Positions 6,902 through 46,895 of a stretch of 64,000 bases of DNA are shown one piece after another. The notes beneath the pieces are model-generated. The model was not told the DNA's origin. It ran no database searches and was given only the letters and a program-made list of their open reading frames with translations. The stretch is from contig CAUUJG010000005.1 of the NCBI GenBank assembly GCA_963545485.1, positions 5,890 through 69,889 on the forward strand. The letters run 5' to 3'. Numbering within the stretch: the stretch's first letter is position 1; every line of letters begins with the position of its first letter. The DNA is from an uncultured Clostridia bacterium. Its GTDB lineage: Bacteria > Bacillota > Clostridia > Christensenellales > CAG-917. Made by a program: the position numbers and the translations under genes.

Positions 6902-6903
6902 TT

Positions 6904-7137
6904 TTATTTCTTTAAAGCATTTGTTATATAATCAACAACATCGCCCACACCGCTAAAATTGAGAACTACAGAATTATCAAATTCCATTCCAAATTCATCT
7001 TCAGCACACATTAATAATTCAACTATATCCAAACTGTCTATTCTCAAATCATCAACAAATTTTGTTTTAAGCGTAATCCTATCAGGGTCAATATTTAACT
7101 GCTCTGCCATCATCTTACGTATCTTTTCAAAAATCAT
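6904..7137 (-). CDS. acpP: acyl carrier protein
   Basis: 77-aa acidic protein with the phosphopantetheine attachment motif DSLDIVEL. Confidence 0.85.
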   Translation of the reverse strand: MIFEKIRKMMAEQLNIDPDRITLKTKFVDDLRIDSLDIVELLMCAEDEFGMEFDNSVVLNFSGVGDVVDYITNALKK

Positions 7138-12050: not shown

Positions 12051-12139
12051 GGAGATGTATCGAAGTGGTTATAACGGGGCTGACTCGAAATCAGTTAGGG
12101 AGCAATCCCTCGGGGGTTCGAATCCCTCCATCTCCGCCA
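12051..12139 (+). tRNA. tRNA-Ser (anticodon CGA), CCA encoded
   Basis: Acceptor GGAGATG pairs with CATCTCC. The anticodon loop is CTCGAAA, there is a long variable arm (TAGGGAGCAATCCCTCG), the T-loop is GGTTCGAATCC, and discriminator G precedes CCA. Confidence 0.9.
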
Positions 12140-12279
12140 CGCACCCAAAATTGCTACCTGATCATATCGAATTTACCCCAAATATTGCCCCTACACGCCC
12201 TAGTTTTAACGATTTAGTTTCTTTCGATGACATTATCAACGGCGAGTGGAGAGACCTGAGATTGCGAGGAAATGGTTAT
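12140..12279 (+). repeat. island repeat copy R1 (B segment only), abutting the tRNA-Ser 3' end
   Basis: The core ...cccaaaattgctacctgatcatatcgaattt...cattatcaacggcgagtggagagacct...ggaaatggttat recurs at 15499, 17700 and 24697, and in diverged form near 22130. Confidence 0.9.
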
Positions 12280-12326
12280 GTGAGAGAGTAAAAATAATTA
12301 CTAATTGTCTTGACTTGGGGAGCATA

Positions 12327-12995
12327 TTAATTTTCTACTTCCGCAATCATTTTCGTTAATTTGTGATATCTACAATATGAAGTTTCTTCGTTGCTTGTTT
12401 CTCCACCTAAATCAATTATCGCCTGACCTATTATTGCCCTCTTTGATGGCTTGCTGTTATTTAGAATTTCCAGCTTGGTATCTCTTTCTAATATAGACAA
12501 TGTCCCCCGATTGTTTGTCGTACCATAATATGTCTTCCCTGTTAAGGATGACGTGAATTCAATATCTTTGAAATGATGTCTCTTTATTGACATCTCGGAT
12601 TCTTCTTCTGCTACATCATTTTCTAATTCTTGTTCTTCAGTAATATCAATTTTCTTTAAATTGTCTACTAGCCCATTTATTTCGGCAATTGCCTCAAGAA
12701 TTTTATATGCTTCTTCAGCAGTCATAGCGTAGAATTCCCTCTTCCTTTCTTTGTTATTATATATTTCTCTTGCTCTTAAATTAGGATTAAGTTGATCAAT
12801 TAAGTCGTGAATCTTTATGTCTGTTAATCTTTTTTCAACTTCATAATAGGCATATAATCTGAAGGCAAATGGTATACATGAACTGCTATTTAAAGTATTT
12901 ACTCTTTCTTTTACGTCATCCGCATAACCAATCTTGACATACTGCGGAAAAGAAGGATTTGTTAAAATATAAATAACTCCTGCTTTATTTTTCAA
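12327..12995 (-). CDS. GIY-YIG / T5orf172 (MUG113)-type domain protein
   Basis: 222 aa. The N-terminus GVIYILTNPSFPQYVKIGYADDVKERVNTLN... fits the GIY-YIG-like T5orf172 fold. The C-terminal half is unassigned. Confidence 0.6.
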   Translation of the reverse strand: MKNKAGVIYILTNPSFPQYVKIGYADDVKERVNTLNSSSCIPFAFRLYAYYEVEKRLTDIKIHDLIDQLNPNLRAREIYNNKERKREFYAMTAEEAYKILEAIAEINGLVDNLKKIDITEEQELENDVAEEESEMSIKRHHFKDIEFTSSLTGKTYYGTTNNRGTLSILERDTKLEILNNSKPSKRAIIGQAIIDLGGETSNEETSYCRYHKLTKMIAEVEN

Positions 12996-13271
12996 AATAG
13001 CTTACCTCTTTTATATGTCCATCTTTTCTATTTTTATTTTTTGAATCGTCCTTTCTCATTATTTCCAACATCTCCTATTTTTTCTACAGCTCTATCGTAA
13101 CATAATAACGGAACTTTTCACTAACGCCAAAATCGCCCGATAGAATTAGACGGGAACAAAAAATCAGCAGACAATATTTGCCTAATTACTCAATTCAAGA
13201 ATAGACCTGTTCGATAACCATTTCAAAACAATAGCAATCAGTTATAATATATTGAGTGATAAAAATGAACC

Positions 13272-14237
13272 ATGAGGAGGATGAGGATGAAAAAACGACT
13301 ACTTTCAATGAAAGCCGACGGATTTTATGGGATTTGGTATCCGAATTCCAAGAGAGAAAGTCACTGCGGTATGATACTTATGCTTGGTGATTCTTCGGAC
13401 GGCAGGATGGTTTGTGCCGGGGTAAAATGGGTGCATGGGCAAGGACTTCATGCACTTTCACTTTCGCCTGGGAAAAAGGATCTCGGTCGACACAATTATC
13501 CGTTGGAATTCGTGGGAAAGGCGATTGAATTCCTTCGAACTCAAGGCTGTGAGAAAATCGGAATTTGCGGAGTATCTGCAACGGGGATAACAGTTCTTCT
13601 TGCCGCATCTTATTATTCGGACATCAGTCTTACCATAGCAATGACTCCTGCGGATTTTGTCATGGAGGGGTATTATAGGGACGGTGCGGACGGTGCTCAC
13701 GAGCGACCGGGAGATCATGAATCCTCCGTGTCATGGGAGGGAAAACCTTTGCCGTATTTGCCTTATGCTTACAGACATCCGGAGTATTGGAAAAAAATTA
13801 AAGAAGAGTCCAAAGCGGGCGGTGATTTGATCGCAGCTCGAAAGATGTTTGATGAATCGGAACGTCGTCATCCCGTCACCGAAGAAGAAACGATTAAAAT
13901 AGAACGTATTCACGGGAAGATGGTTTGTATCGGAGCGGAAGATGACGTTTTGTGGGATACCTGCAAATATATTCGAAGAATGCAGCGGAGACTGGAACGG
14001 CTCCCACACAACTGTGATTTCGAGGCATTGACTTATGAACACGGGACACATTTTATATTTCCGGAATTCATGTTGAAACGGATATTTCCGATCGGCTCGG
14101 GACTTCTGATGGGATTTATATTTAAGGCGGCAAGAGAATATCCGAAGGAATGCAAAGAGACAAGATTGGATATTGACAGGAGACTTATGCGGATAATCAG
14201 TAAATGGTCAAACGAAAAAAAAAAGAAAAGCCATTAA
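13272..14237 (+). CDS. alpha/beta hydrolase, BAAT / acyl-CoA thioester hydrolase C-terminal-like
   Basis: 321 aa with a nucleophile elbow GVSATG and a C-terminal HGTHF. GC content is clearly higher than the flanks. The likely true start is the ATG at 13287, 6 nt after AGGAGG. Confidence 0.6.
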   Translation: MRRMRMKKRLLSMKADGFYGIWYPNSKRESHCGMILMLGDSSDGRMVCAGVKWVHGQGLHALSLSPGKKDLGRHNYPLEFVGKAIEFLRTQGCEKIGICGVSATGITVLLAASYYSDISLTIAMTPADFVMEGYYRDGADGAHERPGDHESSVSWEGKPLPYLPYAYRHPEYWKKIKEESKAGGDLIAARKMFDESERRHPVTEEETIKIERIHGKMVCIGAEDDVLWDTCKYIRRMQRRLERLPHNCDFEALTYEHGTHFIFPEFMLKRIFPIGSGLLMGFIFKAAREYPKECKETRLDIDRRLMRIISKWSNEKKKKSH

Positions 14238-14334
14238 TTTCCAGCTTAATGACATCGGTCTTTAACCGAGGCTGTCGATTTTTTAATGACCCCATCAAAA
14301 ATCTATCAAAATTAACACATCAATTCATGAAAAA

Positions 14335-14435
14335 TAAAAAAGCACCTATTTCTAGATGCCATAGTATTAAAGTCTTCACCATATTCTCCCAACAACTCAA
14401 CTCATCAATAATCGACAATCTAACCCACTCAATTA
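14335..14435 (+). repeat. island repeat fragment (A segment only)
   Basis: aaaaaagcacctatttctagatgccatagtatta..cttcaccatattctcccaacaactcaactcatcaataa... matches the A segments at 15349, 17540 and 24530. Confidence 0.85.
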
Positions 14436-14535
14436 ATAAAAACCCCCATCAAAAAACATTATCAAGGATGATACGCTACTAGACTTTTATTAATGACTTT
14501 TTCGCTACATGAGATTTTTTGTTAAAAGTTTTCTA

Positions 14536-15210
14536 TTAGATGAAATTTACTCTTCGATCTATTTCTTCATGCCATTCATCATCGTAATCTTTATAAAACC
14601 TAAAAAGACCTTTAAACGATTTCTTATTATTATTTAAATATGACCTTGAAAACTGGCAGTTGATACGTTGCAGACTTTCACAATTATAAAATGCCTCATC
14701 CTCAATACTTTTCACTGAACTTGGGATTATTATTTCTGAAATTGATGTCCCAAGAAATGCTGCAGCACCTATCTTTTCTAATCCTTGATTTAGCGTTATA
14801 GTTTTCAAATTTTTACAATAATAAAATGCATTTGTCCCTATTATTTTTATCCCATTTCCAAATGCAACCTCTCTTAAATTTGTACATTGATTAAAAGCAT
14901 GAGATTGAATTTCTTCTACTGAATTTGGAATATTCACTTTTTCAATATATTCCTTAAACATAAATGCCCTTTCGGATATTCTATTTATTGGATACCCTTT
15001 ATATTTTGTAGGGATATTTACATTTTCTCCAACACCTATGTATTCTTTTATTGAGTACCCGTTAGCAACTCTTTCCATTTTAAAATTTTTTTCTATATCT
15101 GCATCAGTCATAATCTTCTTTGTAGTCGCTCCATTTGAACAACCAAACAATGACATTGATAGTAGTAAAATTAAAGATATAAACAATGCTAACTTGATTT
15201 TTTTATTCAT
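14536..15210 (-). CDS. lipoprotein with BspA-type leucine-rich repeats
   Basis: 224 aa with a signal peptide and lipobox (LFGCSNG). Repeats follow the pattern I.IP.SV..I...AF..C..L. It is a paralogue of the C-terminal half of 15703-16890. Confidence 0.75.
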   Translation of the reverse strand: MNKKIKLALFISLILLLSMSLFGCSNGATTKKIMTDADIEKNFKMERVANGYSIKEYIGVGENVNIPTKYKGYPINRISERAFMFKEYIEKVNIPNSVEEIQSHAFNQCTNLREVAFGNGIKIIGTNAFYYCKNLKTITLNQGLEKIGAAAFLGTSISEIIIPSSVKSIEDEAFYNCESLQRINCQFSRSYLNNNKKSFKGLFRFYKDYDDEWHEEIDRRVNFI

Positions 15211-15242
15211 AAAACTCCCCTCGAAAATAAATTATTAAAAAC

Positions 15243-15273
15243 ATTCTACCCCCCCCCCATTTTAATTTGTCAA
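15243..15273 (-). promoter_or_regulatory. sigma-A-type promoter with a G10 tract inside the spacer
   Basis: The minus strand reads TTGACA(15273-15268)-AATTAAAAT-G10(15258-15249)-TAGAAT(15248-15243). The spacer is 19 nt. RBS GAGGGGAG and the ATG at 15210 follow. Confidence 0.65.
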
Positions 15274-15632
15274 TACCATAGTGAATTTTAAGTTATGAAA
15301 GACACATGAAATAGCCATTCAAAAATTAATCAAGAGACTCATAGAAAATAAAAAAATACCTATTTCTAGATGCCATAGTATTAGAGGCTTCACCATATTC
15401 TCCCAACAACTCAACTCCTCAATAACCGACCATCTACCCCACTTAATCACCCAAATTCAATGCCTCATTCCACAAGTATTATTAAACTTAATCTATGCGC
15501 CCAAAATTGCTACCTGATCATATCGAATTTGCCCAAAATATTGCCCCTACGCGCCCTAGTTTTGATGGTTTCGATTCTTTCGATGACATTATCAACGGCG
15601 AGTGGAGAGACCTTAGAATGCGAGGAAATGGT

Positions 15633-15669
15633 TATAAATAAAATATGGACATCGGTGAGGACATCCATA
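15633..15669 (-). terminator. intrinsic terminator at the end of repeat B
   Basis: The minus strand reads TATGGATGTC-CTCACC-GATGTCCATA (10-bp stem including 2 G-U pairs) followed by TTTTATTTAT. It lies 34 nt after the stop of 15703-16890. Confidence 0.6.
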
Positions 15670-15702
15670 GTTATAATTTTGATATTGATTTAATTTTTTG
15701 TT

Positions 15703-16890
15703 CTATCCGTTTACCCAGTTGATTATAGATTCTTTTTCAAGTAGTCCTCTAAATTTACTCTCATTAGCTTGAACATAACTTTTCTTTAACTTACATTCTA
15801 TTGACCTAAGTTTATCGCAAAAGTTAAATGCCCTTTCTCCTATCTCTTCTACTGTACTTGGAATTGTTATTTCTTCGATACCTGTTTCATGAAACGCACT
15901 TGGTTCTATTTCTTTTAAGCCTTCATTTAGAGTCACTTTTTTAAGATTTGAACAACCCGCAAAAGCAAGTTTTCCTATTTTTTCTAATGTGCTTGGCATT
16001 CTTATTTCTTCGATACCTGCTCCAGCAAACGCTACTTGTTCTATTTCTTTCAATCCTTCATTTAGAGTCACTTTTTTAAGATTTTTACACCCCCAAAAAG
16101 CACCGCCTCCTATCTTTTCTAATGTACTTGGCATTGTGACTTTTTCTATATTGCTATCGAAAAATATTTTAGCTCTTGTCTTTTTACACGTTAATGGTTT
16201 AGTTAATTTCTTTAGAAAAGCTACTTCCTTTAAAAAATCAGAAAACGCTCCTTCTATTATTTCTATTATTTTATAACCTTTATAAATACTAGGAATTCTT
16301 ACATCTGTTGCTTCTCCCTTATATTTCGTTATTACCAATCCGTTTGGAACTCTTACTATTTCAAACAACTTTTTTATCTCGGCATCGGTCATCTTTATTT
16401 CAACTTCTTGATCCAAATCAAAATCTTCACTAGGGGATTTCTTAATATGAGCAAGTCCCAAATTACTATTTAACGCAAGTAATTCCATCTTCTTCTTTTC
16501 AAATTCTTCTTGAGTTATTATGCCAAGATCAAGTAACTCTTTTAATTTTCTTAGTTTAGTAATATTTTCTGCTGGCATGTTGTTTTGTGTTGTTTCTCGT
16601 GCCACATTCTTTTTATTCTTAATATCTTCATCTTTAGAATTTGCCACCATAAATAAAGCCACAACTGGAACAATGGGAATAAAAAACCCTACTATCAAAA
16701 GTATCCATATCGTATTATCATTTACAGATTTATTTTTTTTATTTTTGCCGTACTCAACAGTTACAACTATATGAAAGACAAAAGCTATTGTGACCAGAAT
16801 ATGCCCTATACCTATTATTAACGTTAGATAGCCCACTATATATAAGATAGCTGCATCTTTTGCCATTTTTTTAAGTTCATGTGATTCCAT
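15703..16890 (-). CDS. membrane protein with SHOCT domain and BspA-type LRR domain
   Basis: 395 aa. The N-terminal 2-3 TM region and the LRKLKELLDLGIITQEEFEKKKMELL (SHOCT) motif are paralogous to 16925-17407. The C-terminal LRRs are paralogous to 14536-15210. Confidence 0.75.
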   Translation of the reverse strand: MESHELKKMAKDAAILYIVGYLTLIIGIGHILVTIAFVFHIVVTVEYGKNKKNKSVNDNTIWILLIVGFFIPIVPVVALFMVANSKDEDIKNKKNVARETTQNNMPAENITKLRKLKELLDLGIITQEEFEKKKMELLALNSNLGLAHIKKSPSEDFDLDQEVEIKMTDAEIKKLFEIVRVPNGLVITKYKGEATDVRIPSIYKGYKIIEIIEGAFSDFLKEVAFLKKLTKPLTCKKTRAKIFFDSNIEKVTMPSTLEKIGGGAFWGCKNLKKVTLNEGLKEIEQVAFAGAGIEEIRMPSTLEKIGKLAFAGCSNLKKVTLNEGLKEIEPSAFHETGIEEITIPSTVEEIGERAFNFCDKLRSIECKLKKSYVQANESKFRGLLEKESIINWVNG

Positions 16891-16924
16891 TTCCCCTACT
16901 CCAAGTTAATTACTATAGTACATG

Positions 16925-17407
16925 TCATGCTAGTAGTTCATTTTTCTTCTTATCAAATTCCTCTTGAGTTATTATTCCTGAATCAAGCAACTCTTTTAGT
17001 TGTTTTAGTTTTTCAAAGTTATCAACTGTTTCTTCCCCTTTAGAGTTTTCAGCAGACATATTATTTGTAGTTTCTCCACTCAACTTTTTAGAATTTGCAA
17101 CTAAAAACAAAGCTACAATTTCAACAATATGCACAAAAAATCCGATTATCAATAATATAAAAACAGTATCTTTGCTATCTTTAGAAAATCTTCCATACTC
17201 AACTGTTACGATTATATGAAGTATAAAACTAACTAAATACATCGCACTAGCTATCGAATAAGTGATGACATATGCTATCACCATTCCCTTAGGATTTGCA
17301 GTTACGAGTGCCATAGCTATTATAAGTCCTACTATAATTAACACAAAAACTAGAATTTTTAGTATTGCAGTATTCTTTGCAAGTTTTTTGATTTTATTAA
17401 TTTCCAT
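16925..17407 (-). CDS. membrane protein with C-terminal SHOCT domain
   Basis: TM helices plus LKQLKELLDSGIITQEEFDKKKNELLA. The ATG at 17407 is preceded by GGAGGAA. The track ORF starts at a TTG at 17419. Confidence 0.75.
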   Translation of the reverse strand: MEINKIKKLAKNTAILKILVFVLIIVGLIIAMALVTANPKGMVIAYVITYSIASAMYLVSFILHIIVTVEYGRFSKDSKDTVFILLIIGFFVHIVEIVALFLVANSKKLSGETTNNMSAENSKGEETVDNFEKLKQLKELLDSGIITQEEFDKKKNELLA

Positions 17408-17435
17408 TATTTCCTCCAAAATTTAATATATTAAA

Positions 17436-17466
17436 ATCTTACCCCCCCCCCATTTAATTTTGTCAA
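17436..17466 (-). promoter_or_regulatory. sigma-A-type promoter with a G10 tract inside the spacer
   Basis: The minus strand reads TTGACA(17466-17461)-AAATTAAAT-G10(17451-17442)-TAAGAT(17441-17436). The spacer is 19 nt. RBS GGAGGAA and the ATG at 17407 follow. Confidence 0.65.
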
Positions 17467-17832
17467 TAGTTGAGTGAATTCGAGGTTATGAAAACATATG
17501 CAGTGGTCATTCAAATTAATATGATAATTCTTGGAAAAATAAAAAAGCCCCTATTTCTAGAAGCCATAATTTGAGAACATTCACCATATTCTCCCAACAA
17601 CTCAACTCATCAATAACCGCACATCTAACCCACTCAATTGACCAAATTCAACACCTCTGCTCCACAAGTATTATTAAGCTTAATCTACAAACCCACGCAC
17701 CCAAAATTGCTACCTGATCATATCGAATTTACCCAAAATATTGCCCCTATGTGCCCTTGTTTTGATGGTTTGATTTCTTTTGATGGGATTATCAACGGTG
17801 AGCGGAGAGACCTTGGAATTGAGGGAAATGGT

Positions 17833-17869
17833 TATAATAAAATATGGACATCGTGTTGGGACATCCATA
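17833..17869 (-). terminator. intrinsic terminator at the end of repeat B
   Basis: The minus strand reads TATGGATGTC-CCAACAC-GATGTCCATA followed by TTTTATTAT, downstream of res. Confidence 0.55.
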
Positions 17870-17961
17870 CTCTTAATATTTTTCTTTATTTGATTATAAA
17901 CTCTCCCCCTAACAAACTATTTCATAAATCCTAATTGTTTTGTCATATGGCACATCACCAT

Positions 17962-20175
17962 TTAGAAAATTTTTTCTATTGGCATCCATCTATTGTCTGA
18001 CATTTTCAATACGAACTCAGTGTTGTTGATATAAAGGTTATTGTCGACGTCACGAACAAAACCCCAACTTAGATGTTTTTCATTTGCATATTTCTTAAGT
18101 GCATTAAATTTATTACCAATCTGGGCATCTATATTCTTGTTTGTTCCAGCAATCTCGCCACCTTTTGTTTCAATAACCCACACCGTCCCATCTTTCTTTT
18201 TTACAATATAGTCTGGATAAAATAACCATTGTTTTTGAACAGCATCGATATATACAATTGAAAAATATTGTTGACCAGAATCGCCGTTTTTATACACCCA
18301 ATCAATATCATCTCTTCTTTCACAATACTGTTCAAATAATTGCTCACAAGTGCTTCTAATCAATCTCGTATTAAATTCAGATGTGTACCCATCATAGGCA
18401 TTACTCAATATGTCAATGACCTTTTTAGTAGTTGGATCGTATTTAAAAAAATCTTCAACTAGCATATGGAAGGTTGATGTTTTCACAAACAAATCCATTC
18501 TGCCCTGTTTAACCATTCCAGCTGTTACTTCTTTGAATTCTTCTTTTAGTTTTTTTTCATTGTTGATTATAAAGGCATAGAAGAAATCTGTATCGAGATT
18601 GAGCAGTTTCTTATATTTGTTTGTTTGTTTTTTGAACAAGCGTTCTAGAATTGCTTTTGTCTGTTTTGTTTCAAGACCAATGACTTTTTTAAGTTCATCA
18701 GTAGCATGTAACAAATAAATACCATGTTTATGCGTATTCACCTTTCTTTTAGTTTCAATTACTCGTGCTGTCTCATCACCTACTGTCTCTGTTTTTACAT
18801 AAGTACCAGTCAGTGTTTGACCAAGCAATGAATCGCCAAATACATATCCAGCATTTTCAAGTTTTAGTTGATTTTGTTTTTTATCGGCGGTTAGCTTGTA
18901 TTTCTCCACAAAGAAATCGTATATCTTATTCGAGACATCACGCTCCCCCATTATTGATAAATCACGATCACGAACTTGTTTTTCGAGCTCAAATGTTTTG
19001 CATTTATCCTTTAGAAATAGACGCCTCGTTTCGTACGCCTTATCCATTTGTTCAAGCAATCCGTTTTTCCAAATCTCGTCGAATGTATATACGAAGCAAT
19101 AGTCAAGAAGATTATCTTCATAATGTTTCGCTTCTGGCATCCTTCTAATTCTACCGATTGTTTGAATCTCAAATTGCTCACTCATTCCCTCACGAAGTTT
19201 CACTAGGATCTTTGCACGTGGACAATCCCAACCTGTGCTGATAGCTTGTTTCATGAGTAAAAAGACTGGTGTTGCATCATTGTCGGTCAAATTCTCAGGC
19301 AAATCCCGCTTGTCCTCGCTCATCCACTTACTAACAAATCCGTTCTCATATGTATAACCCATATCCCTAAGTTTTTGTTCTACTGCTTCTATTGTTTCTG
19401 GTTGTCCGTTTGGAAATTGAATTAATACAAGAGGTCTGATTTTCTTTTCTATTTCATTGTATCGTTTTTGAATAGCTTTTCTCTTTTCATCTGCAAGTTC
19501 TAATAACCTATCATAGTCATTATCTATTACTTCCCCACGCTCAATGCCTTCATTGACTGACAGTGCTTTTGTTATTAACCCTGCGTCAATCACCCTTCTT
19601 TCGTCAATTTCATAGTACTCAAACCTTTTATTCTCTCTAGCAGTGGCACTCATCCTTATTATGTGTTTGGCAGTGAAAGAGTCAATTATTGCATTTGCTT
19701 TCGCAGTATTATTGGAGTGTTCCTCATCAATTATAATGATAAAATATATATTGTTGCACCTTGCTTCATCAATTCTATCATACAATGTTTTCCGTTCACT
19801 CTCGGTTATTGCCCTATTACCAGTCTTCGTCACTAATTCCCAATTAATAAATGTCGTGCTTCCCGCTGTAAAACCGCTGGTTAAGGCATCATTTAATGTT
19901 TGTGCTTTCATGGTTGGGGCTATTTTTAGCATCTTTCGACGGCTTTGTTCCTCGAGGTCTCCTTTGCCAGGACATAACCATATAAAAGCAACATTTTTGT
20001 CAACTTTATTAAAAAACTCGTTTATGTAATTGATGAGAATTATTGTTTTACCTGAACCAGTAGGTGATTTAATCGTTACAGTCGGTTTATGATTCCCTGT
20101 CGTTAATTCAATTAACTTTATTACCGCATCTTCCTGAAAATCAAAAAGTTTGATATTCACATTTCCACTTACCAT
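17962..20175 (-). CDS. res: Type III restriction enzyme, Res subunit (SF2 helicase plus PD-(D/E)xK nuclease)
   Basis: 737 aa with Walker A SPTGSGKT, DEEH box IIIDEEH, a helicase C-terminal QTIGRIRR motif, and a C-terminal PDYIV...VIETKGG nuclease motif. The start overlaps the mod stop (ATGGTAA). Confidence 0.85.
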   Translation of the reverse strand: MVSGNVNIKLFDFQEDAVIKLIELTTGNHKPTVTIKSPTGSGKTIILINYINEFFNKVDKNVAFIWLCPGKGDLEEQSRRKMLKIAPTMKAQTLNDALTSGFTAGSTTFINWELVTKTGNRAITESERKTLYDRIDEARCNNIYFIIIIDEEHSNNTAKANAIIDSFTAKHIIRMSATARENKRFEYYEIDERRVIDAGLITKALSVNEGIERGEVIDNDYDRLLELADEKRKAIQKRYNEIEKKIRPLVLIQFPNGQPETIEAVEQKLRDMGYTYENGFVSKWMSEDKRDLPENLTDNDATPVFLLMKQAISTGWDCPRAKILVKLREGMSEQFEIQTIGRIRRMPEAKHYEDNLLDYCFVYTFDEIWKNGLLEQMDKAYETRRLFLKDKCKTFELEKQVRDRDLSIMGERDVSNKIYDFFVEKYKLTADKKQNQLKLENAGYVFGDSLLGQTLTGTYVKTETVGDETARVIETKRKVNTHKHGIYLLHATDELKKVIGLETKQTKAILERLFKKQTNKYKKLLNLDTDFFYAFIINNEKKLKEEFKEVTAGMVKQGRMDLFVKTSTFHMLVEDFFKYDPTTKKVIDILSNAYDGYTSEFNTRLIRSTCEQLFEQYCERRDDIDWVYKNGDSGQQYFSIVYIDAVQKQWLFYPDYIVKKKDGTVWVIETKGGEIAGTNKNIDAQIGNKFNALKKYANEKHLSWGFVRDVDNNLYINNTEFVLKMSDNRWMPIEKIF

Positions 20176-21889
20176 GATTCTCCAACCTCCTTCATTTCAA
20201 AATCAAAATAATAATCTGGAATTGTTTGTATTTTCACTTTATCAAAAAGCTCTATCTGCTTAGTCGATAACAAAACTTCTCTAGAAATGTATATACACTC
20301 TGGAAAATTGTTTTTATCCCATTTTGCTTCCAAATCGTCTGCAGCACTATCGTTTAATAAAACAACATATTTCTTGCCGTCAATCTTTATTCCATTTTCA
20401 AGTTGTATCATTTCACATACGTGTTCAAGTAAGGCATCTAATAAAAAGTCCTCATCTCGTGATACAAAATCTGTCTTGTAATATTTTAAATTATGTGGTA
20501 ACTCCTTCTGAATATTCTTAAGCCTTTGATAGGTGACTTCCTCGCAAATTTTATTCTCATTATTCGTGCAAAGTATATATCTGCGATTCCCGCCATCTTC
20601 TTTGTTTAATTCAATCACTGCATGACCTGTTGTACCTGAACCCGCAAAAAAATCTAAAATTATTGTGGGTTCGCTATTCTTTGTTTCTGCACTTTTAATC
20701 AAGCGTTTTAATAACTTTAATGGTTTTGGATAATCAAATTTACCTCGACCTAATATTTTGATGACTTCATTGTTCCCGTTTGTTGAATCAGTAATTATAT
20801 TTTTTAAATTCGTAGAGAACATGTCTCTAATTTTTGTAAATATCCTAAATGTGTCTCCGTCCTTTTGAAAATGAAGATTTTCTACATCTTCACAAACTTT
20901 TTTTTCAGACCATCTCCATGCATGAAATTTATGTATACCATCTGCATTGTTGTGAGGTTTTATCAAAACAAAATTTGGATCTATTTTTTTTACTACTTCT
21001 CCATCATCTATCTTGGCAGTAATTACTTCTTTCGTTCTATCATTATAATAAATGTTATAAACTAAATTTGGTCTAGTTTCTTCATTGAAGGCAGAGTTCG
21101 TGTTAAATAACTCATTTTTAATCACATACTCACTTATTTTGTCTTTATATATTCTATATTCATTGTTTTTATAAATTGAAGGCATTTCTGTCGACAATTC
21201 TCTTATGTCTCCCTTAAAAGTATGAATATTTTCACCTGTTGCCGCATATAACAAAATATTTTCATATGTCTTGACAGCTCCACCACGCCCAATTTGTCTA
21301 CCTTTAGAATTATTTATCCATACAAAATCTGAAATAAAATTTTGTTCACCAAATATAGAATCACATAAAAGTTTTAAATTATACAACTCGTTATCATCAA
21401 TACTGATAAAAATAACACCGTTTTCTTTTAGTAATTGTTTTGCTATGCATAATCGTTTTGCCATAAAAGATAGCCATTTTGAATGTCTATAGCCATCTTC
21501 TTCTCCAACCATTGCATCATCATAAATAAATTCCTTCCCCGTGTTGTATGGCGGATCAATATAAATTACATCAATTTTTCCCTTATGTGTTTTTTGTAAT
21601 AAATACAGAGAGTGTAAATTGTCTCCCTCTAGTAGAAAATTATACCCCCCCCCCGCACATTGCTTATTATTTTTTCTTTTACTTCGGTAAAAACAGGAAT
21701 ATTGCCCCGTATATTATCATCAACTGTTTCTGTATGTTCCTCCCAAACCAAACCATACTTTTTACTTTTCAAAGCACTCTCAATTTCCCCAATTGCTACA
21801 AGGGACTCATCATCTGTCTTATTTTGTTCTTTAAGTTGTTGAAGAAAATTTAGCATCTTTTCTCTCTTCAGTTTTGATATATTCCCCAT
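20169..21889 (-). CDS. mod: Type III R-M Mod N6-adenine methyltransferase, frameshifted at a G10 tract (phase-OFF as assembled)
   Basis: The ORFs 21629-21889 and 20169-21512 are two pieces of one gene. With G11 or G8 the frame reads ...RGGGGYNFLLEGDNLHSLYLLQKTHKGKIDVIYIDPPYNTGKEFIYDDAMVGEEDG..., running into the 447-aa ORF that carries motif I (LDFFAGSGTTGHA). Confidence 0.85.
21645..21654 (-). repeat. homopolymeric G10 (C10 on the plus strand) inside the mod coding sequence
   Basis: Counted directly as 10 consecutive C at 21645-21654. The reading frame breaks immediately downstream (TAG at codon 87). Confidence 0.95.
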
Positions 21890-22049
21890 TTTTGCTCCTT
21901 ATTCTTTTTTATTGGCGAAAACATGCCAAACTTTAATACATATTAATTAAATAAGAGAGAAATATCAATTTAATTTATTAGTGACGACTGCCATGAGCCC
22001 GCATCACACGGTTGTCCAATAGAATTTAGTTTGATTAAAATATTTTGAT

Positions 22050-22305
22050 AACGGTACATCTAATTCACCTAATACAAGACATCCCCCACTCCAAATCCCT
22101 TATCAAGAATATTCTACAAACCCACCGCCAACAAATCACTAACGGATAATATCAAAACTAGCCCAAACATTGCCCCTACATGCCCTAGATTTCGTGACTT
22201 TGATGTTTATGACTACATTATTCACCGTGAGATACTAACCCCTTAAATAATAGGAAATGATTATGTATGGGAATAAAATATGGGCATCGGTTAGGACATC
22301 CATTT
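22050..22305 (+). repeat. island repeat copy R4 (diverged A+B)
   Basis: Retains ...ctacaaacccac...cattgcccctacatgccctag...attat.caccgtgag...ggaaatgattatg...aaaatatgggcatcggttaggacatccat in the same order as the other copies. Confidence 0.7.
22272..22303 (-). terminator. intrinsic terminator at the end of repeat B
   Basis: The minus strand reads ATGGATGTC-CTAACC-GATGCCCAT followed by ATTTTATT. It lies 16 nt after the stop of 22319-22849. Confidence 0.5.
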
Positions 22306-22318
22306 CAACTATTTTATT

Positions 22319-22849
22319 TTAGTCAATATCTTCTTTGACATTTATGATTTTCCCTATCAAACATTTCTTCCCAATCAGTCTATTCAAAATGTCTAGCCCT
22401 GACTTATGCATCTCGATTCCAGCGTTAGAAAAACAATACTCCGTTAAAACAATAGGCATTATACCCTTTTCAAACAAGTCTACCGCTATCTTTAGAACAC
22501 AACAATCAGTATCAACTCCACAGACATGTACTTTATTTGGCACTCTGTTATTGTTTAATTTTTTAAGTAAATCTATAAAGTCATTATTAACGCAAGTATA
22601 TACTTCCTTATCAACTACTTCATCTGCTTTAATTCCATCAACCAAATCGATATCTGGATTCTTTGAAAGTTTATCCCAGTTTAAATATTTCCTAAAAGGG
22701 CTTTCTTCCTTATTTATAAATCTAGTGGCTACTACTTTATCAAAACTGCCATTCCTAGTTAGGGCTATAATTTTATCCGCTACCTCTCTAGTTTCATTCG
22801 TTTGGCAAAACCCATTCTGTATATCCACTACAATTAAAATCTTATTCAT
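22319..22849 (-). CDS. isochorismatase-family cysteine hydrolase (nicotinamidase-like)
   Basis: The protein starts MNKILIVVDIQNGF (catalytic Asp block) and contains VCGVDTDCCV (nucleophile Cys block). The ATG at 22849 lies 7 nt after the upstream gene's TGA, with RBS GAGGGA overlapping that stop. Confidence 0.8.
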   Translation of the reverse strand: MNKILIVVDIQNGFCQTNETREVADKIIALTRNGSFDKVVATRFINKEESPFRKYLNWDKLSKNPDIDLVDGIKADEVVDKEVYTCVNNDFIDLLKKLNNNRVPNKVHVCGVDTDCCVLKIAVDLFEKGIMPIVLTEYCFSNAGIEMHKSGLDILNRLIGKKCLIGKIINVKEDID

Positions 22850-22856
22850 TAATCCC

Positions 22857-24083
22857 TCATTTATTTTTATAGTTAAATAATACTGTAGCAATTGCAACCG
22901 CCAATAAGGCAATAAATAATATCCAATTTCTCCAACTAAATTGACTTTTCACGATATCCCAAACTGTTTTATACAATGATGACGCTGTGAAAACTGCTAG
23001 GAATATATCAACCACCACTTTGTTCTTTTTCTTCCTGTCTAGATTTTGTGCCTCTTTTATTTTCTTTTGAATACTTATTTGATTTGCTACTGATTTATAT
23101 AATTGTTTGACTTCTGATGTAGCTATTACCTTTTCAAGTATTGTTTTATACAGTGAACTCATATTGGCACTTATTCCATTCTCTAACTCTGAATGTGAGT
23201 ATTCAATTAAACTTGCTAGCCTTTGCAAACTCTCCATACTGCATGTACTAGTCTTGGTTATGTTGTCCATACAATTGTCGGCAATAAACCATCTAGATTG
23301 GATATATGCCTCTACTTTAATTAACTCAGAAATCAATGGTATGTTCAAAACTTCTTCATAGCTTGTTAAATTTCTTTCTGCCTCAACTGCTACACCAGAC
23401 CAAGAGTAATATGATAAGGCATTGTCTGCTTCCAATACGTACTTTACTTTTTCTGCTTTACTTGCTTTTATATTTTTATCTATATTTGCCCATTCACTAT
23501 TAGTAGTAACTTTGTTAAAAATCTTTGACTCCATTAAGTGATTAATTTCATTTTCGTTCAATGCATTCTTATTAATCAAATAAACTGTCAACACATACGA
23601 CAACCCATCGGCTTTATATGTTTTTGCCCCTGAAAATTTTCTAGTATGTGGAATCAATTTTTTCTTTACGCCCTCGCCTACTATCTTCCAACATAAATCA
23701 CGGAACAACTCCATCATCTTTTTCTCTTCTGCAAAAATTTCCTTATCTTCGAAACGATTCAATATTGCTGCTTGAGATACTTCTTTTTGATAGTTTGCTA
23801 ATAAAGCCTTGCTATATGTAAAAATTGATTTGTCGGTATTCTTCAGTGCGTTACCATCAAAGTCTGAAAGCACGAATATCCCCACTCCATTAGACAGGAC
23901 ATAACATTTTAAATGTGGCAACAAACTTGCAATGCAAATAGATGAGTCCACAAGGTCACTATTATCAAATGAAATCCCATCAACAGTCTGCCCTAAATAT
24001 TTTAAAGTGATATTGTCTTTTACCTCTATTCCATATTCTTTAGCTATATTTATGAGGTTTTGATTGAATGATTTTGCGAACAC
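22857..24083 (-). CDS. hypothetical protein with a C-terminal transmembrane anchor
   Basis: 408-aa ORF with no motif I can assign. The C-terminus has WILFIALLAVAIATVLF (TM). The start is a GTG without a visible SD, so the 5' end is uncertain. Confidence 0.5.
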   Translation of the reverse strand: MFAKSFNQNLINIAKEYGIEVKDNITLKYLGQTVDGISFDNSDLVDSSICIASLLPHLKCYVLSNGVGIFVLSDFDGNALKNTDKSIFTYSKALLANYQKEVSQAAILNRFEDKEIFAEEKKMMELFRDLCWKIVGEGVKKKLIPHTRKFSGAKTYKADGLSYVLTVYLINKNALNENEINHLMESKIFNKVTTNSEWANIDKNIKASKAEKVKYVLEADNALSYYSWSGVAVEAERNLTSYEEVLNIPLISELIKVEAYIQSRWFIADNCMDNITKTSTCSMESLQRLASLIEYSHSELENGISANMSSLYKTILEKVIATSEVKQLYKSVANQISIQKKIKEAQNLDRKKKNKVVVDIFLAVFTASSLYKTVWDIVKSQFSWRNWILFIALLAVAIATVLFNYKNK

Positions 24084-24289
24084 TGAATTTTTGAATTATT
24101 GACACTTAAACAATCATTGAAAATACACCCTAAATCAAAAGGGATAATGTGCACTTGTTGAATTGGGTTGCTTTCTATTACAAATTGCCTAGTCACATAT
24201 TTATTATACAACCTAAAATTAAATTTTCTATCACTGAATATACTAAAGTAATGGCTAGTTCATAAGCTTCGTAGTCACAACATCAACAA

Positions 24290-24335
24290 AATAAAAAAGC
24301 ACCTATTTCTAGATGCAATTTTATGAGAGCCTCGA
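24290..24335 (+). repeat. island repeat fragment (start of A)
   Basis: aaaataaaaaagcacctatttctagatgcaattttatgagagcc matches the first ~45 nt of the A segments. Confidence 0.7.
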
Positions 24336-24529
24336 GCCCTGGTCTTATAAACCCAGTTTTTAACGACTGGCTGTTCTCTCGTTACGACCTCAATCGTACC
24401 ACGCTTTTTTACGGCGTCAAATCGTAAATAAAATATAAAGGAGCTTTATAAAAATGTCAAGATGTCGTTGAAAAACAAATCTCCTAAGAGGACATTAAAG
24501 AGTTATCAATATTAATATGACACATCATG

Positions 24530-24872
24530 GAAAATGAAAAACGCCTACTTATAGATGCCATAGTATTAGAGCCTTCACCATATTCTCCCAACAACTCAAC
24601 TACACAATAACCGCATATCTAACCCACTCAAATATCCTAATTAAACACCCCCACCCCATATGTATTATTGAACATGCTCTACAAACGCACAACGACAAAA
24701 TTGCTACCTGATCATATCGAATTTACCCCAAATATCACCCCTGTGTGCCCTTGCTTTGATGATTAGGATTCTTACGATGGCATTATCAACAAAAAGTGGA
24801 CTAACCCTAGAATGGCAAAAATAATTGTGTGGAGAATAAAAAATACGGACATCAATTGGGAGATCCATATGC
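24530..24872 (+). repeat. island repeat copy R5 (A+B)
   Basis: ...cttatagatgccatagtattagagccttcaccatattctcccaacaactcaac...caaaattgctacctgatcatatcgaatttacccc...cattatcaac...acggacatcaattgggagatccata. Confidence 0.88.
24838..24869 (-). terminator. intrinsic terminator at the end of repeat B
   Basis: The minus strand reads TATGGATCTCCCAATTGATGTCCGTA (imperfect stem) followed by TTTTTT. It lies 21 nt after the stop of 24890-26104. Confidence 0.5.
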
Positions 24873-24889: not shown

Positions 24890-26104
24890 TCATTTGTTTT
24901 TATTGATTTGCTTAATTAAGTAGTTCAAAAGCACTTCACTGTAGTCCATTGGTATATCCTTTGTATGCTTATATAACGCATTACAAAAATCTAGGTAATA
25001 CGGATCATTGACATTTTTTGAAACTAAATAATTATAAATATCTCTGTATCTTATTTCTTTATATAACTTACTACCCTCATATAATGACAAATCTAGTTTG
25101 TTATGATTCGGTAAAAATAGAAAATACGATGCTCTTTTATGTTTCTCTCTAGCATAGTTCTCAGCGAAACTATAATACTTTGATAATTGAGATTGTATCA
25201 AACAACCATCACTAAAATCATGTCGATATGAAACTCCATTAATTCCCGATTTTATTTTGTTTTCAATAATAAGAATATTCGTATCGTCTTCAATCCATAA
25301 ATCAATATTATGAAACTCTCTTTTTATACTATATGTAGGATTTATATTGATATTTAAAATTTCTCTTGCGAAGTCTACAAATAAATAGCTGTATTTACTA
25401 AAAAAATAATTGAACATATTTGAGAAAGACAATTCATCATCCTCTTTGCCGATTAAGGTTAAAAAATTAAAATGATTATTATGTTTCTCGTTATCTATTC
25501 TAGTTATTATTTCACACCAAATCTCCTCGTCATTAATCATCCTCATAATTTCATTAAAGGAATCAGGTGTACTAATGTCGTCAACATACATATGCAGTGA
25601 CTGCTTTGCGAAACGTTTGTCCGCCATTTTATAAGAAACAATACAGTCACTAACTGTTTTATTGTAATGCGAATCTAATATAAAGATTTGTCTCTTCGGA
25701 TACAACAGTTTCTCTGATTTAAAAGTTATAGGCACCCATTCTTCTGTATCTTTTATGTAAGGAACTCCGCCATAATTAATAGGATGTTTTTTAGTATATT
25801 CTTTTAGCTCATGTGAACAAATTCCAAGTTTTTCTTTTAACCTGCATCCTTTTGCATGCACCAACTGACTTTCATCATTTAAGATACTAACCCCTATTAC
25901 TTCAAAACACCCAGTTTCATATAATCTCGTGTGAATAACTGCACGAACCGTATTATCATACCTTGAATTAAACAAGCCTTGAGGATTAATAAAGCAATAA
26001 TTTATTCCCTCATCTGAATGAAGTAAATTTATAACCTCGCCACCACCAATACCACGAGTCAAATACTCTCCAGCATACATTCTATTAATAATAATTGAAT
26101 TCAT
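24890..26104 (-). CDS. PD-(D/E)xK nuclease-family protein with an unassigned N-terminal domain
   Basis: The C-terminal half has NIDLWIEDDTNILIIENKIKSG...QLSKYY (D...E-x-K core). The ATG at 26104 overlaps the upstream TAA (TAATG) and is preceded by GAGAGGA. Confidence 0.65.
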   Translation of the reverse strand: MNSIIINRMYAGEYLTRGIGGGEVINLLHSDEGINYCFINPQGLFNSRYDNTVRAVIHTRLYETGCFEVIGVSILNDESQLVHAKGCRLKEKLGICSHELKEYTKKHPINYGGVPYIKDTEEWVPITFKSEKLLYPKRQIFILDSHYNKTVSDCIVSYKMADKRFAKQSLHMYVDDISTPDSFNEIMRMINDEEIWCEIITRIDNEKHNNHFNFLTLIGKEDDELSFSNMFNYFFSKYSYLFVDFAREILNININPTYSIKREFHNIDLWIEDDTNILIIENKIKSGINGVSYRHDFSDGCLIQSQLSKYYSFAENYAREKHKRASYFLFLPNHNKLDLSLYEGSKLYKEIRYRDIYNYLVSKNVNDPYYLDFCNALYKHTKDIPMDYSEVLLNYLIKQINKNK

Positions 26105-26622
26105 TATATTTCCTCTCTCGAGACATAACACATTGATGCTTTCTCATCTGGTAGCACTAAATAAAACTCCACATCAAACTCGTCAATAAGTTCTCTTAGT
26201 TTTTCATACACTTTAGATCCAACACATTCATGCTTATAGCCGTGATGACCCGTTCCCAAACTAACACTAATAATATTTTTATAACCCCTTTGGGCAGCAC
26301 TATTGAATATTAAATAATAACTATCAAGCAATTCCACATAAGGATTTGTTGATTCAAAGAACTTCGGACAATAGATATGTAAAATATCCACATTTAAACC
26401 AAAATCTGGCGTGAATCGTATCTCATTCACTTCCATATTTTTAGTAAATTTTTTTTGACAATAATCTTCTAATTCTCGCATGCCTGCTCGTTTATATGTT
26501 TGTCCACAAATGCCACTGCCATATAACATATATTTATTATTGCTATTAACGATTAAATCTTTGCCACCCAAATAGTCGAATAAAGTGCCAGTTACTATGT
26601 GCAGTTTGTTAGTTCTTTCCAT
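26104..26622 (-). CDS. macrodomain (ADP-ribose binding/hydrolase) protein
   Basis: 172 aa with IVNSNN...GSGICGQ and ISVSLGTGHHGY blocks. These correspond to the macrodomain NAAN...GGGV and ISFP.IStG.yG motifs. Confidence 0.7.
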   Translation of the reverse strand: MERTNKLHIVTGTLFDYLGGKDLIVNSNNKYMLYGSGICGQTYKRAGMRELEDYCQKKFTKNMEVNEIRFTPDFGLNVDILHIYCPKFFESTNPYVELLDSYYLIFNSAAQRGYKNIISVSLGTGHHGYKHECVGSKVYEKLRELIDEFDVEFYLVLPDEKASMCYVSREEI

Positions 26623-26701
26623 AAATTACCTTTGAGCATATATTACGTCACTAATGTCAAACATCTTTGCAATGCACACCTTTACTTTATTCCTTATATT
26701 T

Positions 26702-28108
26702 TTACAGCAACCTCTTGTATATATCTAACATACTTTCCATTTGATATTTTAATAGCCAAGCGACATCATTATATTCACTTGTTTTCTTTATTGTTTCTAA
26801 TAACTTTGGATAATATCTCTCAGTTTCTTTTATCATTTGAAACATCCTCTCCTTACTAAGTCCCCACGACATTGTTGTTAAGTTATTGCAACGATCAATA
26901 CACTTTGTTATTGATGCCTTTACATTGCAGCAAATTGTATTGTAGTACATTTCCATATCGCTTTCAGTTGTATTCTCTTTTGATTTCCTTCTTGTCATAA
27001 GTCTTACTATTTCTTTCGATTCGTCTCCAACTGGTAACTCACGCTCTTCCTTCCCGCAATCTTCAATTACATCGTGTAAAAGTATTGCGGAAATTAACGC
27101 ATCATCTCTAATCCCCATTGCCAGTGCGTGACAAGCCATATTTAAGGGATGATATATGTAAGGAACTTCTGAGTTTTTTCTTGTTTGTCCATAATGTGAT
27201 TCTACTGCATACTCAATACTCTTTAATGTATCATTCAAGTTGCATTTCTTTGCTACTCGCTCAACATATTCCCTCATGTGTTCCCAATCATATATTGCTT
27301 CCTTTGTTTTAAAATCTTTCCCTTTTATACCAATCCTTCGAATTTCTTCAACACCCACAATTTGCAATTTTCTTATCCCCTGTCTGAATTTTTCAAATTT
27401 GTTTGCACGTCTAAAAGGTAATGTTGGAAAGATTGTCGCACACATTGCTGTTAGAATACCTATAGGTATACACAATCTCACCATAAAATTTATTAATTCT
27501 ACCTTCATATTACTATTTAAATTTTGCAAGTAACCGCCACTTAATACCAAAAACAATGGGAAAATAAAAGTTGAAAATATTTGTAAAACTACTATTGCAC
27601 CCTTCCATTCATAAGTTTTTTTATTTCTCAAAATTTCTATTTCACTAGCAATTGCATCTAGTGCTTTTTCATCTGCTGTGTCTACTTTTTTAGCTATAAG
27701 TAGTTCATTTAAGACTCTTGCTTCTTCTAAATCTGATTCCCCTATAAGTGGGTCGACTTCAACTGCTTTTTTTAAGGTTATATTAGCATTAATACAAAAC
27801 CATAAACCCACAATGAAAAATAAGATAACACAAACTATAAAAACATAAAATTCCTTTATGGTCCCAACTTTGAGAGCAAACACTCTTATTCCTTCTACAC
27901 CTATAATGATAAGCAAAATCGAACACAAAACTGAATAAATAATACCCTGTATTTTTCTTTCCTTTCTACTCTTTTCAAATCCACTTTCTTCTAATTTTTC
28001 ATTAAATGCAGGTTTCTTTCCTTTAGACTGTTTTTTCTCTTCTTTTTTCCTTTTTTCCTCATTGTTTAGTTTTTTAACATACTGTTTTGCTAATTCTTCC
28101 ACCAACAT
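26702..28108 (-). CDS. multi-pass membrane protein with a C-terminal SpoT/RelA-type HD hydrolase domain
   Basis: 468 aa with a Lys/Glu-rich N-terminus and about 6 predicted TM helices. The C-terminal part has YIYHPLNMACHALAMG...LLHDVIEDCG (the H...HD...ED pattern of (p)ppGpp-hydrolase-type HD domains). Confidence 0.65.
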   Translation of the reverse strand: MLVEELAKQYVKKLNNEEKRKKEEKKQSKGKKPAFNEKLEESGFEKSRKERKIQGIIYSVLCSILLIIIGVEGIRVFALKVGTIKEFYVFIVCVILFFIVGLWFCINANITLKKAVEVDPLIGESDLEEARVLNELLIAKKVDTADEKALDAIASEIEILRNKKTYEWKGAIVVLQIFSTFIFPLFLVLSGGYLQNLNSNMKVELINFMVRLCIPIGILTAMCATIFPTLPFRRANKFEKFRQGIRKLQIVGVEEIRRIGIKGKDFKTKEAIYDWEHMREYVERVAKKCNLNDTLKSIEYAVESHYGQTRKNSEVPYIYHPLNMACHALAMGIRDDALISAILLHDVIEDCGKEERELPVGDESKEIVRLMTRRKSKENTTESDMEMYYNTICCNVKASITKCIDRCNNLTTMSWGLSKERMFQMIKETERYYPKLLETIKKTSEYNDVAWLLKYQMESMLDIYKRLL

Positions 28109-46894: not shown

Positions 46895-46895
46895 T

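Follow-up and report, generated by a model that had tools for sequence, protein, structure and literature searches.

A tRNA-anchored island of gene cassettes separated by one repeated spacer module in an uncultured Clostridia bacterium

In a 64-kb stretch of DNA from an uncultured Clostridia bacterium (hereafter the window, on which all coordinates are based), unrelated gene cassettes stand in a row behind the 3' end of tRNA-Ser(cga), with copies of the same long repeat between them. The question raised by this locus is how such cassettes can be exchanged when no recombinase gene is found beside them. We conclude that the locus is a tRNA-anchored additive island, in which one repeated spacer module keeps the cassettes apart and appears to insulate, switch and shuffle them. 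As to the mechanism, we lean with modest confidence towards shuffling by homologous recombination through the spacer modules, in arrays whose seeding would go back to an older integration event at tRNA ends.

The spacer module and its position

The repeat is a module of two parts, A (~250 nt) on the left and B (~150-180 nt) on the right, 330-430 nt in total, and all of its copies in the window share one orientation (Table 1). A lies directly left of B at 15241, 17433 and 24507; ~22044 holds a short diverged A core only, and the B next to it, the fourth of the five, is 62-70% identical to the other copies. One 28-mer of B (AAAATTGCTACCTGATCATATCGAATTT) and one of A (TTCACCATATTCTCCCAACAACTCAACT) have four exact matches each, none in 100 shuffles and none outside 12-25 kb.

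A sequence-only reading of this DNA had described a cassette array anchored at the tRNA 3' end, with five co-oriented repeat copies and two short fragments, the first copy at the CCA end of tRNA-Ser and its junction reproduced at 17694. A repeat search of the window recovered all of these copies and fragments, the junction string ccacgcacccaaaattgctacc occurs both at 12137 and at 17694, and the array itself is confirmed by the repeats, the anchor and the polymorphism described below. The cassette contents listed in that reading agree with the Pfam and PADLOC results. Two of its statements hold in part. The length of up to ~430 bp given for a single long unit stands, the unit being made up of A (~250 nt) and B (~180 nt). 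Genes do stop just before a copy (at 12327, 15703, 17962, 22319 and 24890, against outer B ends at 12290, 15672, 17871, 22303 and 24868), at a distance of 16-95 nt; the exception is the LRR lipoprotein gene, which has lost its own B because the fragment beside it, A', is truncated at 14455.

In wider searches, a 21-mer from the B core was found at three sites in two metagenome-assembled genomes (MAGs) among 185,579 species genomes, with one or two sites per genome (the copy numbers being lower bounds, since MAGs are fragmentary), and in three contigs of a metagenome collection. It had no match among viral contigs, phage records or plasmid records, and the idea that a phage, a plasmid or a virus carries the module was dropped for want of a match in the records searched. 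Through the module or the cassette proteins we reached a related set of ~35 contigs (~300 kb, partly redundant; designated below by L-numbers), in which, as in the window, every recovered module copy sits at a tRNA end or between cassettes. It is hardly credible, then, that the module is a generic dispersed intergenic element of the REP/BOX kind, or a duplicated promoter/terminator region, and the array-like look incidental. The module does contain such ordinary parts, two terminators and a promoter, but no copy was found in the remaining ~51 kb of the window, exact matches elsewhere are as few as given above, and the cassettes move as units between modules. REP, BOX and ERIC repeats, in contrast, occur in many scattered intergenic copies. 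The check proposed by the sequence-only reading thus reveals a repeat confined to arrays and not scattered over genomes.

The start of B is constant, with CCA-C, a variable stretch of 6 nt and then AAAATTGC, and it follows three different intact tRNAs in this form. It stands behind tRNA-Ser(cga) in the window, L002, L006, L008, L013 and L023, behind tRNA-Ser(tga) in L001 (beside proC), and behind tRNA-Ala(ggc) in L004 (beside a dihydroxyacetone kinase gene). L001 and L004 carry a common cassette of three genes, for an LRR protein, a family-less protein and a trypsin-like peptidase, which is 85% identical in part, and the two loci have upstream flanks without any relation to each other. Behind CCAC, the 6-nt stretch occurs mainly as GCACCC or as AACGAC, which are unrelated to each other (GACGAC being a close variant of the latter), and the form is linked neither to the left partner (tRNA or A type) nor to the right-hand cassette. 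Just right of the junction, a 28-nt core shows a loose dyad symmetry, AAATT..TGATCA..AATTT. Main-type B copies contain an invariant stretch of 28-45 nt, even across species with ~77% core DNA identity, while its neighbours vary by 20-30%. Likenesses to hix, Tn7-end and dif sites were weak, unconserved in the diverged B copies, and dropped.

On the minus strand, the order of elements is the gene stop, 16-95 nt, terminator T1, ~150 nt of B core, the junction, 100-150 nt of A core, and terminator T2. T1 is a predicted terminator composed of a hairpin and a T run, for example TATGGATGTCC-TCACC-GATGTCCATA TTTTATTT at 15669-15644, and the G.U pairs of its stem form on the minus strand only. T2 is a second predicted terminator, GGCATCTAGAAATAGGTGCT TTTTTATTTT. 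In A2 and A3, two of the window's four full copies, these are followed by a consensus promoter, TTGACA-N9-G10-TAGAAT, directed toward the next gene. We infer that the terminators and promoters work as predicted.

The module is non-coding. A 52-aa minus-strand open reading frame (ORF), considered as a protein-coding remnant, looked plausible in two copies and in B1 is interrupted by an in-frame stop; none of the frames stays open throughout the module copies, and a 3-base periodicity is absent from the variable columns (33/28/30 by codon phase). Nor is either part of the module a structured RNA. For B, a bridge-RNA or seekRNA type, a small RNA and a tRNA trailer were considered and rejected, with no consensus structure and no covariation on either strand: RNAalifold of 12 B copies gave -4.9 kcal/mol on one strand and -3.0 kcal/mol on the other and essentially no covariation, a whole module folded no better than its shuffles (z = +0.3 and +0.6), and no Rfam family matched the module, even in permissive mode. 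No dyad symmetry or hairpin was found in the module beyond the two terminators, and direct or inverted 12-mers within A|B, as expected of arm-type or transposase-binding repeats, are as frequent as in shuffles. The possibility that A is a decayed tRNA copy was also discarded, as local alignment on either strand does not rise above shuffles (p 0.2-1.0); A (...CCCAC) and the tRNA (...GCCAC) share only the 4-nt CCAC end.

A separate feature is a possible transcription unit of ~135 nt on the minus strand at 24288-24460, with a strong predicted TTGACA-17-TATATT promoter (24460-24432) and its end at an extra T2. It has a folding z of -2.1, a 77% homologue at L023 1333-1463, no Rfam match and no ORF.

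Cassette turnover within and between species

L013, L023 and their relatives belong to the species of the window, the sodA-coaX-tRNA stretch of L013 being 96.8% and the tRNA of L023 100% identical. The arrays of these same-species strains (the window, L013, L014, L023 and L020) are almost wholly different. Counted from the tRNA, with cassettes separated by semicolons, the window contains T5orf172 and BAAT genes; the LRR lipoprotein gene; SHOCT-LRR and SHOCT genes; Res and Mod; isochorismatase and unknown genes; nuclease, macro and HD genes. L013 contains two small ORFs; a CfrBI restriction-modification (R-M) system; T5orf172 pseudogenes; glyoxalase and Bro-N genes; the nuclease cassette; an LRR gene; a resolvase gene with an invertible MmeI-like R-M system. 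The order in L014 is TfoX, glyoxalase and Bro-N genes, then the nuclease cassette and others; in L023, L026 and L027 it is LRR335 and LRR528; the nuclease cassette; T5orf172 and BAAT; RNase III, with others following; in L020 the nuclease cassette comes first.

The T5orf172 and nuclease cassettes therefore stand in opposite relative order in the window and L013 versus L023. The arrays of L020, L014 and L013 can be arranged as a nested series. Behind the same tRNA, at least six different cassettes occupy the first place among the ~35 contigs, and the position directly after the tRNA is the most variable one. The arrays of sister species begin with an LRR-420 gene in L008, a GmrSD gene in L006 and the nuclease cassette in L002. 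Cassette gain, loss and reordering, which the sequence-only reading had suggested looking for among related strains, are thus massive both within the species and between sister species.

Comparison between species points in the same direction. Overall, cassette identity between species is 95-99%, against 77-86% for the core genes. The nuclease cassette is 95% identical to that of L002, where the core is 77% identical, and 95.8% identical to that of L009, with a core of 80-87%; for the T5orf172 cassette and L035 the values are 96.7% and 85-86%. Since cassettes are far more alike across species than core genes, they have evidently been transferred between species.

The variable island spans the interval from tRNA-Ser to the radical-SAM gene, ~12.1-29.2 kb. 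The array end at 24.9 kb assumed in the sequence-only reading has to be moved, because comparison with L009 and L013 extends the island to ~29.25 kb. In L007, L036, L024, L025, L033 and L034, an operon of ~13 kb lies between modules like a very large cassette; its genes encode LRR-1107, a Big_2-like protein, MoxR, DUF58, BatA, VWA and LRR-864, and the cassettes flanking it differ between strains.

Some further observations concern the surroundings of the arrays. The flanking CoaX protein has its nearest named relative in an Acutalibacteraceae MAG (Clostridia), at 68% identity, and an exact look-up of the window's SodA gave no record; in L012, which has a distant CoaX relative, the contig stops short of the tRNA. 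In L002, glyQS and a 199-aa gene lie between coaX and tRNA-Ser (L002 4056-6173; compare window 32988-35084) and sodA is missing from this interval, so that the core order near the anchor differs between species. In the sister-species contig L035, the T5orf172 cassette with a truncated A' of the window type (6787-8199) adjoins an SSF transporter gene, which in the window lies at 41813-44032 (compared over 41773-48387). A DDE_Tnp_1 insertion sequence (IS) between this cassette and the SSF gene indicates that the array, or part of it, was relocated there. A junction of A with native flank in L005 may reflect a deleted B and was not counted as an attR site.

Exchange points and mechanism

No integrase, transposase, resolvase or relaxase gene was detected in the 64 kb (Pfam on non-nested ORFs of at least 100 aa, NCBIfam on unknowns), as the sequence-only reading had stated, and neither an integrase nor an integrase remnant occurs in the ~35 related array contigs. 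The only two recombinase-type genes in those contigs are a 200-aa resolvase (L013-L015) and one IS transposase (L035). The resolvase adjoins an MmeI/Eco57I-like R-M gene that lies beside an inverted gene with a TaqI_C domain (L013 1-4790, also L014 and L015), and the MmeI-like and TaqI_C genes have in common an inverted repeat of 328 nt (99%; 2097-2424 and 3815-4142). Because of this repeat, the resolvase was rejected as the cassette recombinase and is most simply taken as a specificity-swapping invertase that is itself carried as an array cassette.

The positions at which similarity breaks between arrays with common cargo are more informative. When the window is compared with L005 or L007, the T5orf172 cargo shows 99-100% identity, against 82-98% at the B end and 84-88% at the A' end. 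For the nuclease cargo and the outer 80 nt of B5, the identity of the window to L013 or L009 is 100%, whereas it is about 80% for B at ~45-88 and 68-85% for the junction and A. L002 combines the same nuclease cargo with a different B, the break lying at T1, and in L023 an unrelated RNase III cassette is likewise preceded by an outer segment of the B5 type. The first B of L020 agrees with that of L014 at +23 and with B5 from +68 on, which is what deletion of the first cassette by a crossover inside B, between +23 and +68, would leave.

Change-point analysis of 32 cargo-sharing pairs, which are not independent and are estimated to represent 6-8 underlying events, placed breaks at -14..-1 (14 pairs), +83..87 (8), +102..139 (3) and +167 (6), with one pair lacking a real break (-118). 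The mapped positions are edges of conserved blocks. Taken together, breaks occur at -14..-1, +23..68, ~+84, +102..139 and +167, and a single fixed crossover point at an att core was not seen. As a site-specific system would end similarity at one point, the plurality of breaks argues for homologous recombination and gene conversion among mosaic repeats.

We therefore regard homologous recombination as the probable working mechanism, and it is sufficient for the observed cassette turnover. The modules would act as portable homology, between which RecA-type recombination could delete, insert, replace and reorder cassettes, both within a genome and with incoming DNA of other strains and species. 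A crossover between two module copies would release a circle with one A|B. Insertion or replacement of a cassette could then follow from a single crossover between this circle, or a double crossover between incoming linear DNA, and any resident B or A|B. The tRNA-adjacent copy, B only, would also serve as a partner, and crossovers would fall in the best-conserved blocks. The arrays were probably seeded by older site-specific integration of an element targeting extreme tRNA 3' ends, as suggested by the fact that B abuts the CCA of three unrelated tRNAs at identical spacing and that A ends in ...CCCAC. According to a statement in PMC10250203 that refers to its reference 26, the extreme 3' end of tRNA genes is a known target sublocation for some integrase families. 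Serial accretion at one att site, proposed in the sequence-only reading, could in this way describe at best the origin of the array, since the present exchange points are spread over the repeat.

Several points weigh against this explanation, the small number of events behind the mapped breaks being one of them. Homologous recombination alone does not explain the invariant 28-45-nt stretch of B; that it is invariant while its neighbours vary suggests a bound protein, which could be a recombinase. The junction and the invariant block account for about half of the mapped breaks; site-specific and homologous crossover are indistinguishable there, and a recombinase may act in trans, given that the largest break class lies there. 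The recombinase search covered the window and the ~35 array contigs, and the circles, the transcription and the entry of DNA into the cell are postulated steps.

These points lead to a different model, which we consider doubtful though a serious possibility: an active integron-like platform, with A|B as the attachment site of circles, the tRNA end plus B as the primary site, a recombinase encoded elsewhere, and homologous recombination that blurs the picture later. Such a platform would account for the exact position of B relative to CCA at three different tRNAs, for the resemblance of the A end to the tRNA end, for the invariant 28-nt core with its loose dyad symmetry right of the junction and for the largest break class at the junction and invariant block. 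The variability of the first position past the tRNA and the nesting of the L020, L014 and L013 arrays, as if cassettes had been added beside the tRNA, would also be expected. However, the window and ~300 kb of arrays contain no candidate recombinase other than the L013-L015 resolvase and the L035 IS transposase, several breaks lie well inside B or at T1, and no phage, plasmid or viral contig has the module. GCACCC and AACGAC hexamers occur within single arrays, which is awkward for the overlap region of a tyrosine recombinase, and repeated arm-type sites do not exceed chance. In a more specific form, A|B would be the attachment site of a Clostridia cassette-capture system without integron ancestry, whose circles with one A|B are inserted at tRNA CCA ends or resident A|B and whose putative recombinase, encoded elsewhere, binds the B core; we think this rather unlikely.

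Integrons and clusters of attC sites lacking integron integrases (CALINs) are similar to the island in several respects, including co-oriented unrelated cassettes that are each followed by a recombination-prone element, turnover between strains, and an anchor-adjacent position that is the most variable. They differ from it in having attC sites, imperfect palindromes of 57-141 nt that fold into hairpins, where the island has 330-430 nt of unstructured DNA; in being anchored at attI and not at a tRNA 3' end; and in their mostly promoterless cassettes with a common promoter, where the cassettes described here have their own terminators and (phase-variable) promoters according to consensus predictions. 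The window and related arrays lack IntI, and exchange points are spread over the repeat. The attC-bounded integron suggested by the sequence-only reading is thus not supported: there is no IntI, there is no attC hairpin (the z scores and the missing covariation are given above), and the cassettes have their own promoters.

A very improbable alternative is that the cassettes are non-autonomous transposons with B and A as ends, comparable to the palindrome-associated transposable elements (PATEs) of IS200/IS605 or to IS91-like or Tn7-like elements, which insert 3' of CCAC with a transposase encoded elsewhere. The constant orientation directly after CAC, without inverted terminal repeats or a clear target duplication, fits this proposal, as does the A end that recreates the CAC target and would favour head-to-tail arrays. 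But PATEs have subterminal hairpins at both ends and a Y1 transposase in the genome, and neither B nor A has conserved hairpins on either strand; transposase-binding repeat motifs are no more frequent than by chance; no locus contains Y1_Tnp, Y1/Y2 or Tn7-type genes; and the ends are mosaic and recombine independently of the cargo.

Stacks of elements beside a tRNA gene are known from the tycheposon arrays of Prochlorococcus, cis-mobilizable elements (CIMEs) next to ICEs (integrative and conjugative elements), and pseudo staphylococcal cassette chromosome (pseudo-SCC) elements; integrase-less members with att-type repeats occur among them, and their cargo serves defence or niche adaptation (bioRxiv 10.1101/2020.12.28.424599; PMC5704250; PMC6222049). 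The island resembles them in its location at a tRNA 3' end, with the tRNA left intact, and in that the newest element is plausibly the one nearest the tRNA. In those islands, however, each repeat is a short core or copies part of the tRNA, and integrase genes or what remains of them are present, whereas we see a long two-part repeat without significant tRNA similarity, neither integrases nor remnants in ~35 arrays and no single crossover point. Core defence hotspots and flexible 'additive/replacement' islands have changing defence genes at a fixed tRNA-adjacent site, often without mobility genes, and transfer through flanking homology has been proposed for such hotspots (PMC10250203). Their homology is limited to the core genes at both ends, in contrast to the conserved module that lies between cassettes in the present island.

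Phase variation, cargo and significance

Apart from the C10 tracts at 15249-15258, 17442-17451 and 21645-21654, the 64 kb contain no run of C9 or longer. In the A2 and A3 promoters, the C/G homopolymer lies inside the 19-nt spacer between -35 and -10 (TTGACA-N19-TAGAAT). The G10 tract at 21645-21654 splits mod by a frameshift, and G8 or G11 restores a Mod protein of 572/573 aa, for which reason mod is evidently a phase-variable methyltransferase gene of the phasevarion type, predicted to be OFF in this sequence. With identical flanks, the promoter tract of LRR-528 is C12 in L023, C10 in L026-L028 and C11 in L029, although a homopolymer assembly error is possible. The island thus has the marks of contingency genes: homopolymers in a promoter spacer and in a reading frame, with a length that differs between assemblies. 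Known contingency loci (Mycoplasma vlp promoters, Neisseria opc/porA and type III mod phasevarions) likewise have homopolymers in the promoter spacers of surface-protein genes and in type III mod. They account for the switching of expression and not for cassette turnover; in the island, the switchable promoter belongs to the repeated, travelling module.

The cargo consists of what appear from the annotation to be self-contained transcription units for defence systems and BspA-type LRR surface proteins, and nearly all genes in the island are on the minus strand (Table 1).

Table 1. Features of the island in window coordinates; aligned cores are from the repeat search
Feature	Position	Strand	Remarks
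tRNA-Ser(cga)	12051..12139	+	ARAGORN and Rfam; array anchor; B begins one base past CCA
B1	12140..12290	+	Abuts tRNA: CCA-C, hexamer GCACCC, then AAAATTGCTACC; no A to left; aligned core 12134-12286
T5orf172/GIY-YIG-like protein	12327..12995	-	Pfam; PADLOC candidate defence family PDC-S57
BAAT_C-type hydrolase	13272..14237	+	Pfam; same cassette as T5orf172 gene
A' fragment	14308..14455	+	T2 and conserved A block; cut off before junction; aligned A core 14308-14433
BspA-type LRR_5 lipoprotein	14536..15210	-	Pfam; predicted promoter in A2 drives gene
A2|B2 module	15241..15672	+	B 15497-15672; minus strand: T1 hairpin 15669-15644, B core, junction ~15496, A core, T2 ~15389-15345, then promoter TTGACA-N9-G10-TAGAAT (C10 15249-15258); aligned cores A 15322-15447, B 15490-15642
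SHOCT+LRR_5 protein	15703-16890	-	Pfam; 395 aa; cassette 15703..17419
SHOCT membrane protein	16925-17419	-	Pfam; 164 aa; cassette 15703..17419
A3|B3 module	17433..17871	+	B 17697-17871; C10 promoter tract 17442-17451; T2 17565-17546 (minus strand); aligned cores A 17513-17638, B 17690-17842
A3|B3 junction	17693-17703		...aaacccac|gcaccc|aaaattgc
Type III restriction-modification system	17962..21889	-	Pfam and PADLOC; res 17962-20175, intact; mod 20169-21889
A4|B4 diverged module	22044..22303	+	B 22127-22303; 62-70% identical to others; aligned B core 22119-22271 (62%)
Isochorismatase-family protein	22319-22912	-	Pfam; cassette 22319..24083
408-aa protein	22857-24083	-	No family found; cassette 22319..24083
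Extra T2 copy, terminator-only fragment	24332-24288	-	Within 24288..24460
A5|B5 module	24507..24868	+	B 24691-24868; junction ...aaacgcac|aacgac|aaaattgc; anchor at 24697; aligned cores A 24507-24632, B 24684-24836
PD-(D/E)XK-like nuclease	24890-26131	-	Pfam; cassette 24890..28108
Macro-domain protein	26104-26622	-	Pfam; nuclease cassette
HD-domain protein	26702-28108	-	Pfam; nuclease cassette
Pyrimidine-dimer glycosylase	28296..28664	-	In variable stretch; L009 and L013 carry other genes here
Radical-SAM gene	29253..29801	-	First conserved gene past the array; distal island boundary

The B4 subtype also precedes the resolvase cassette in L013. In the SHOCT cassette, the 395-aa LRR protein has an N-terminal membrane and SHOCT part that is a paralogue of the 164-aa SHOCT protein next to it (repeat pair 16468-16715 / 16922-17169, 73-76% identical), and the LRR gene contains tandem units of 135 nt (15826-16095). 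The HD gene of the nuclease cassette is a hybrid, with its similarity to L002, L009 and L013 breaking at 27313: these relatives have a 271-aa HTH_3+HD_4 gene with 94-96% identity to the C-terminal half, and the N-terminal half, a predicted membrane region, is unrelated to that gene. Five ORFs of the window remain without any family. ORFs with no Pfam or NCBIfam family lie at 49109-53578 (1489 aa), 31727-32848 (373 aa), 34448-35047 (199 aa) and 55842-56567 (241 aa); the 373-aa gene is conserved in L009 beside a radical-SAM gene and an AAA_2 ATPase gene. A PDB sequence search with two family-less ORFs gave no match.

Genes for defence and surface antigens turn over fast at fixed hotspots, often without mobility genes that would account for it. 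In the island described here this turnover has a visible handle, a conserved 0.4-kb module with terminators and a slippage-controlled promoter, at which exchanges occur within and between species. If the modules are purely portable homology, they would give gut-type Clostridia a simple and recombinase-free way of shuffling genes as integrons do; with a recombinase acting in trans, they would belong to a new cassette-capture system. Should A|B be an attachment site, the island would be a functional analogue of the integron, with tRNA ends as primary site and a phase-variable promoter for each cassette. Under either reading, the B core can be used as a sequence tag for finding such arrays, and the pool of defence and adhesin genes that they hold, in metagenomes.

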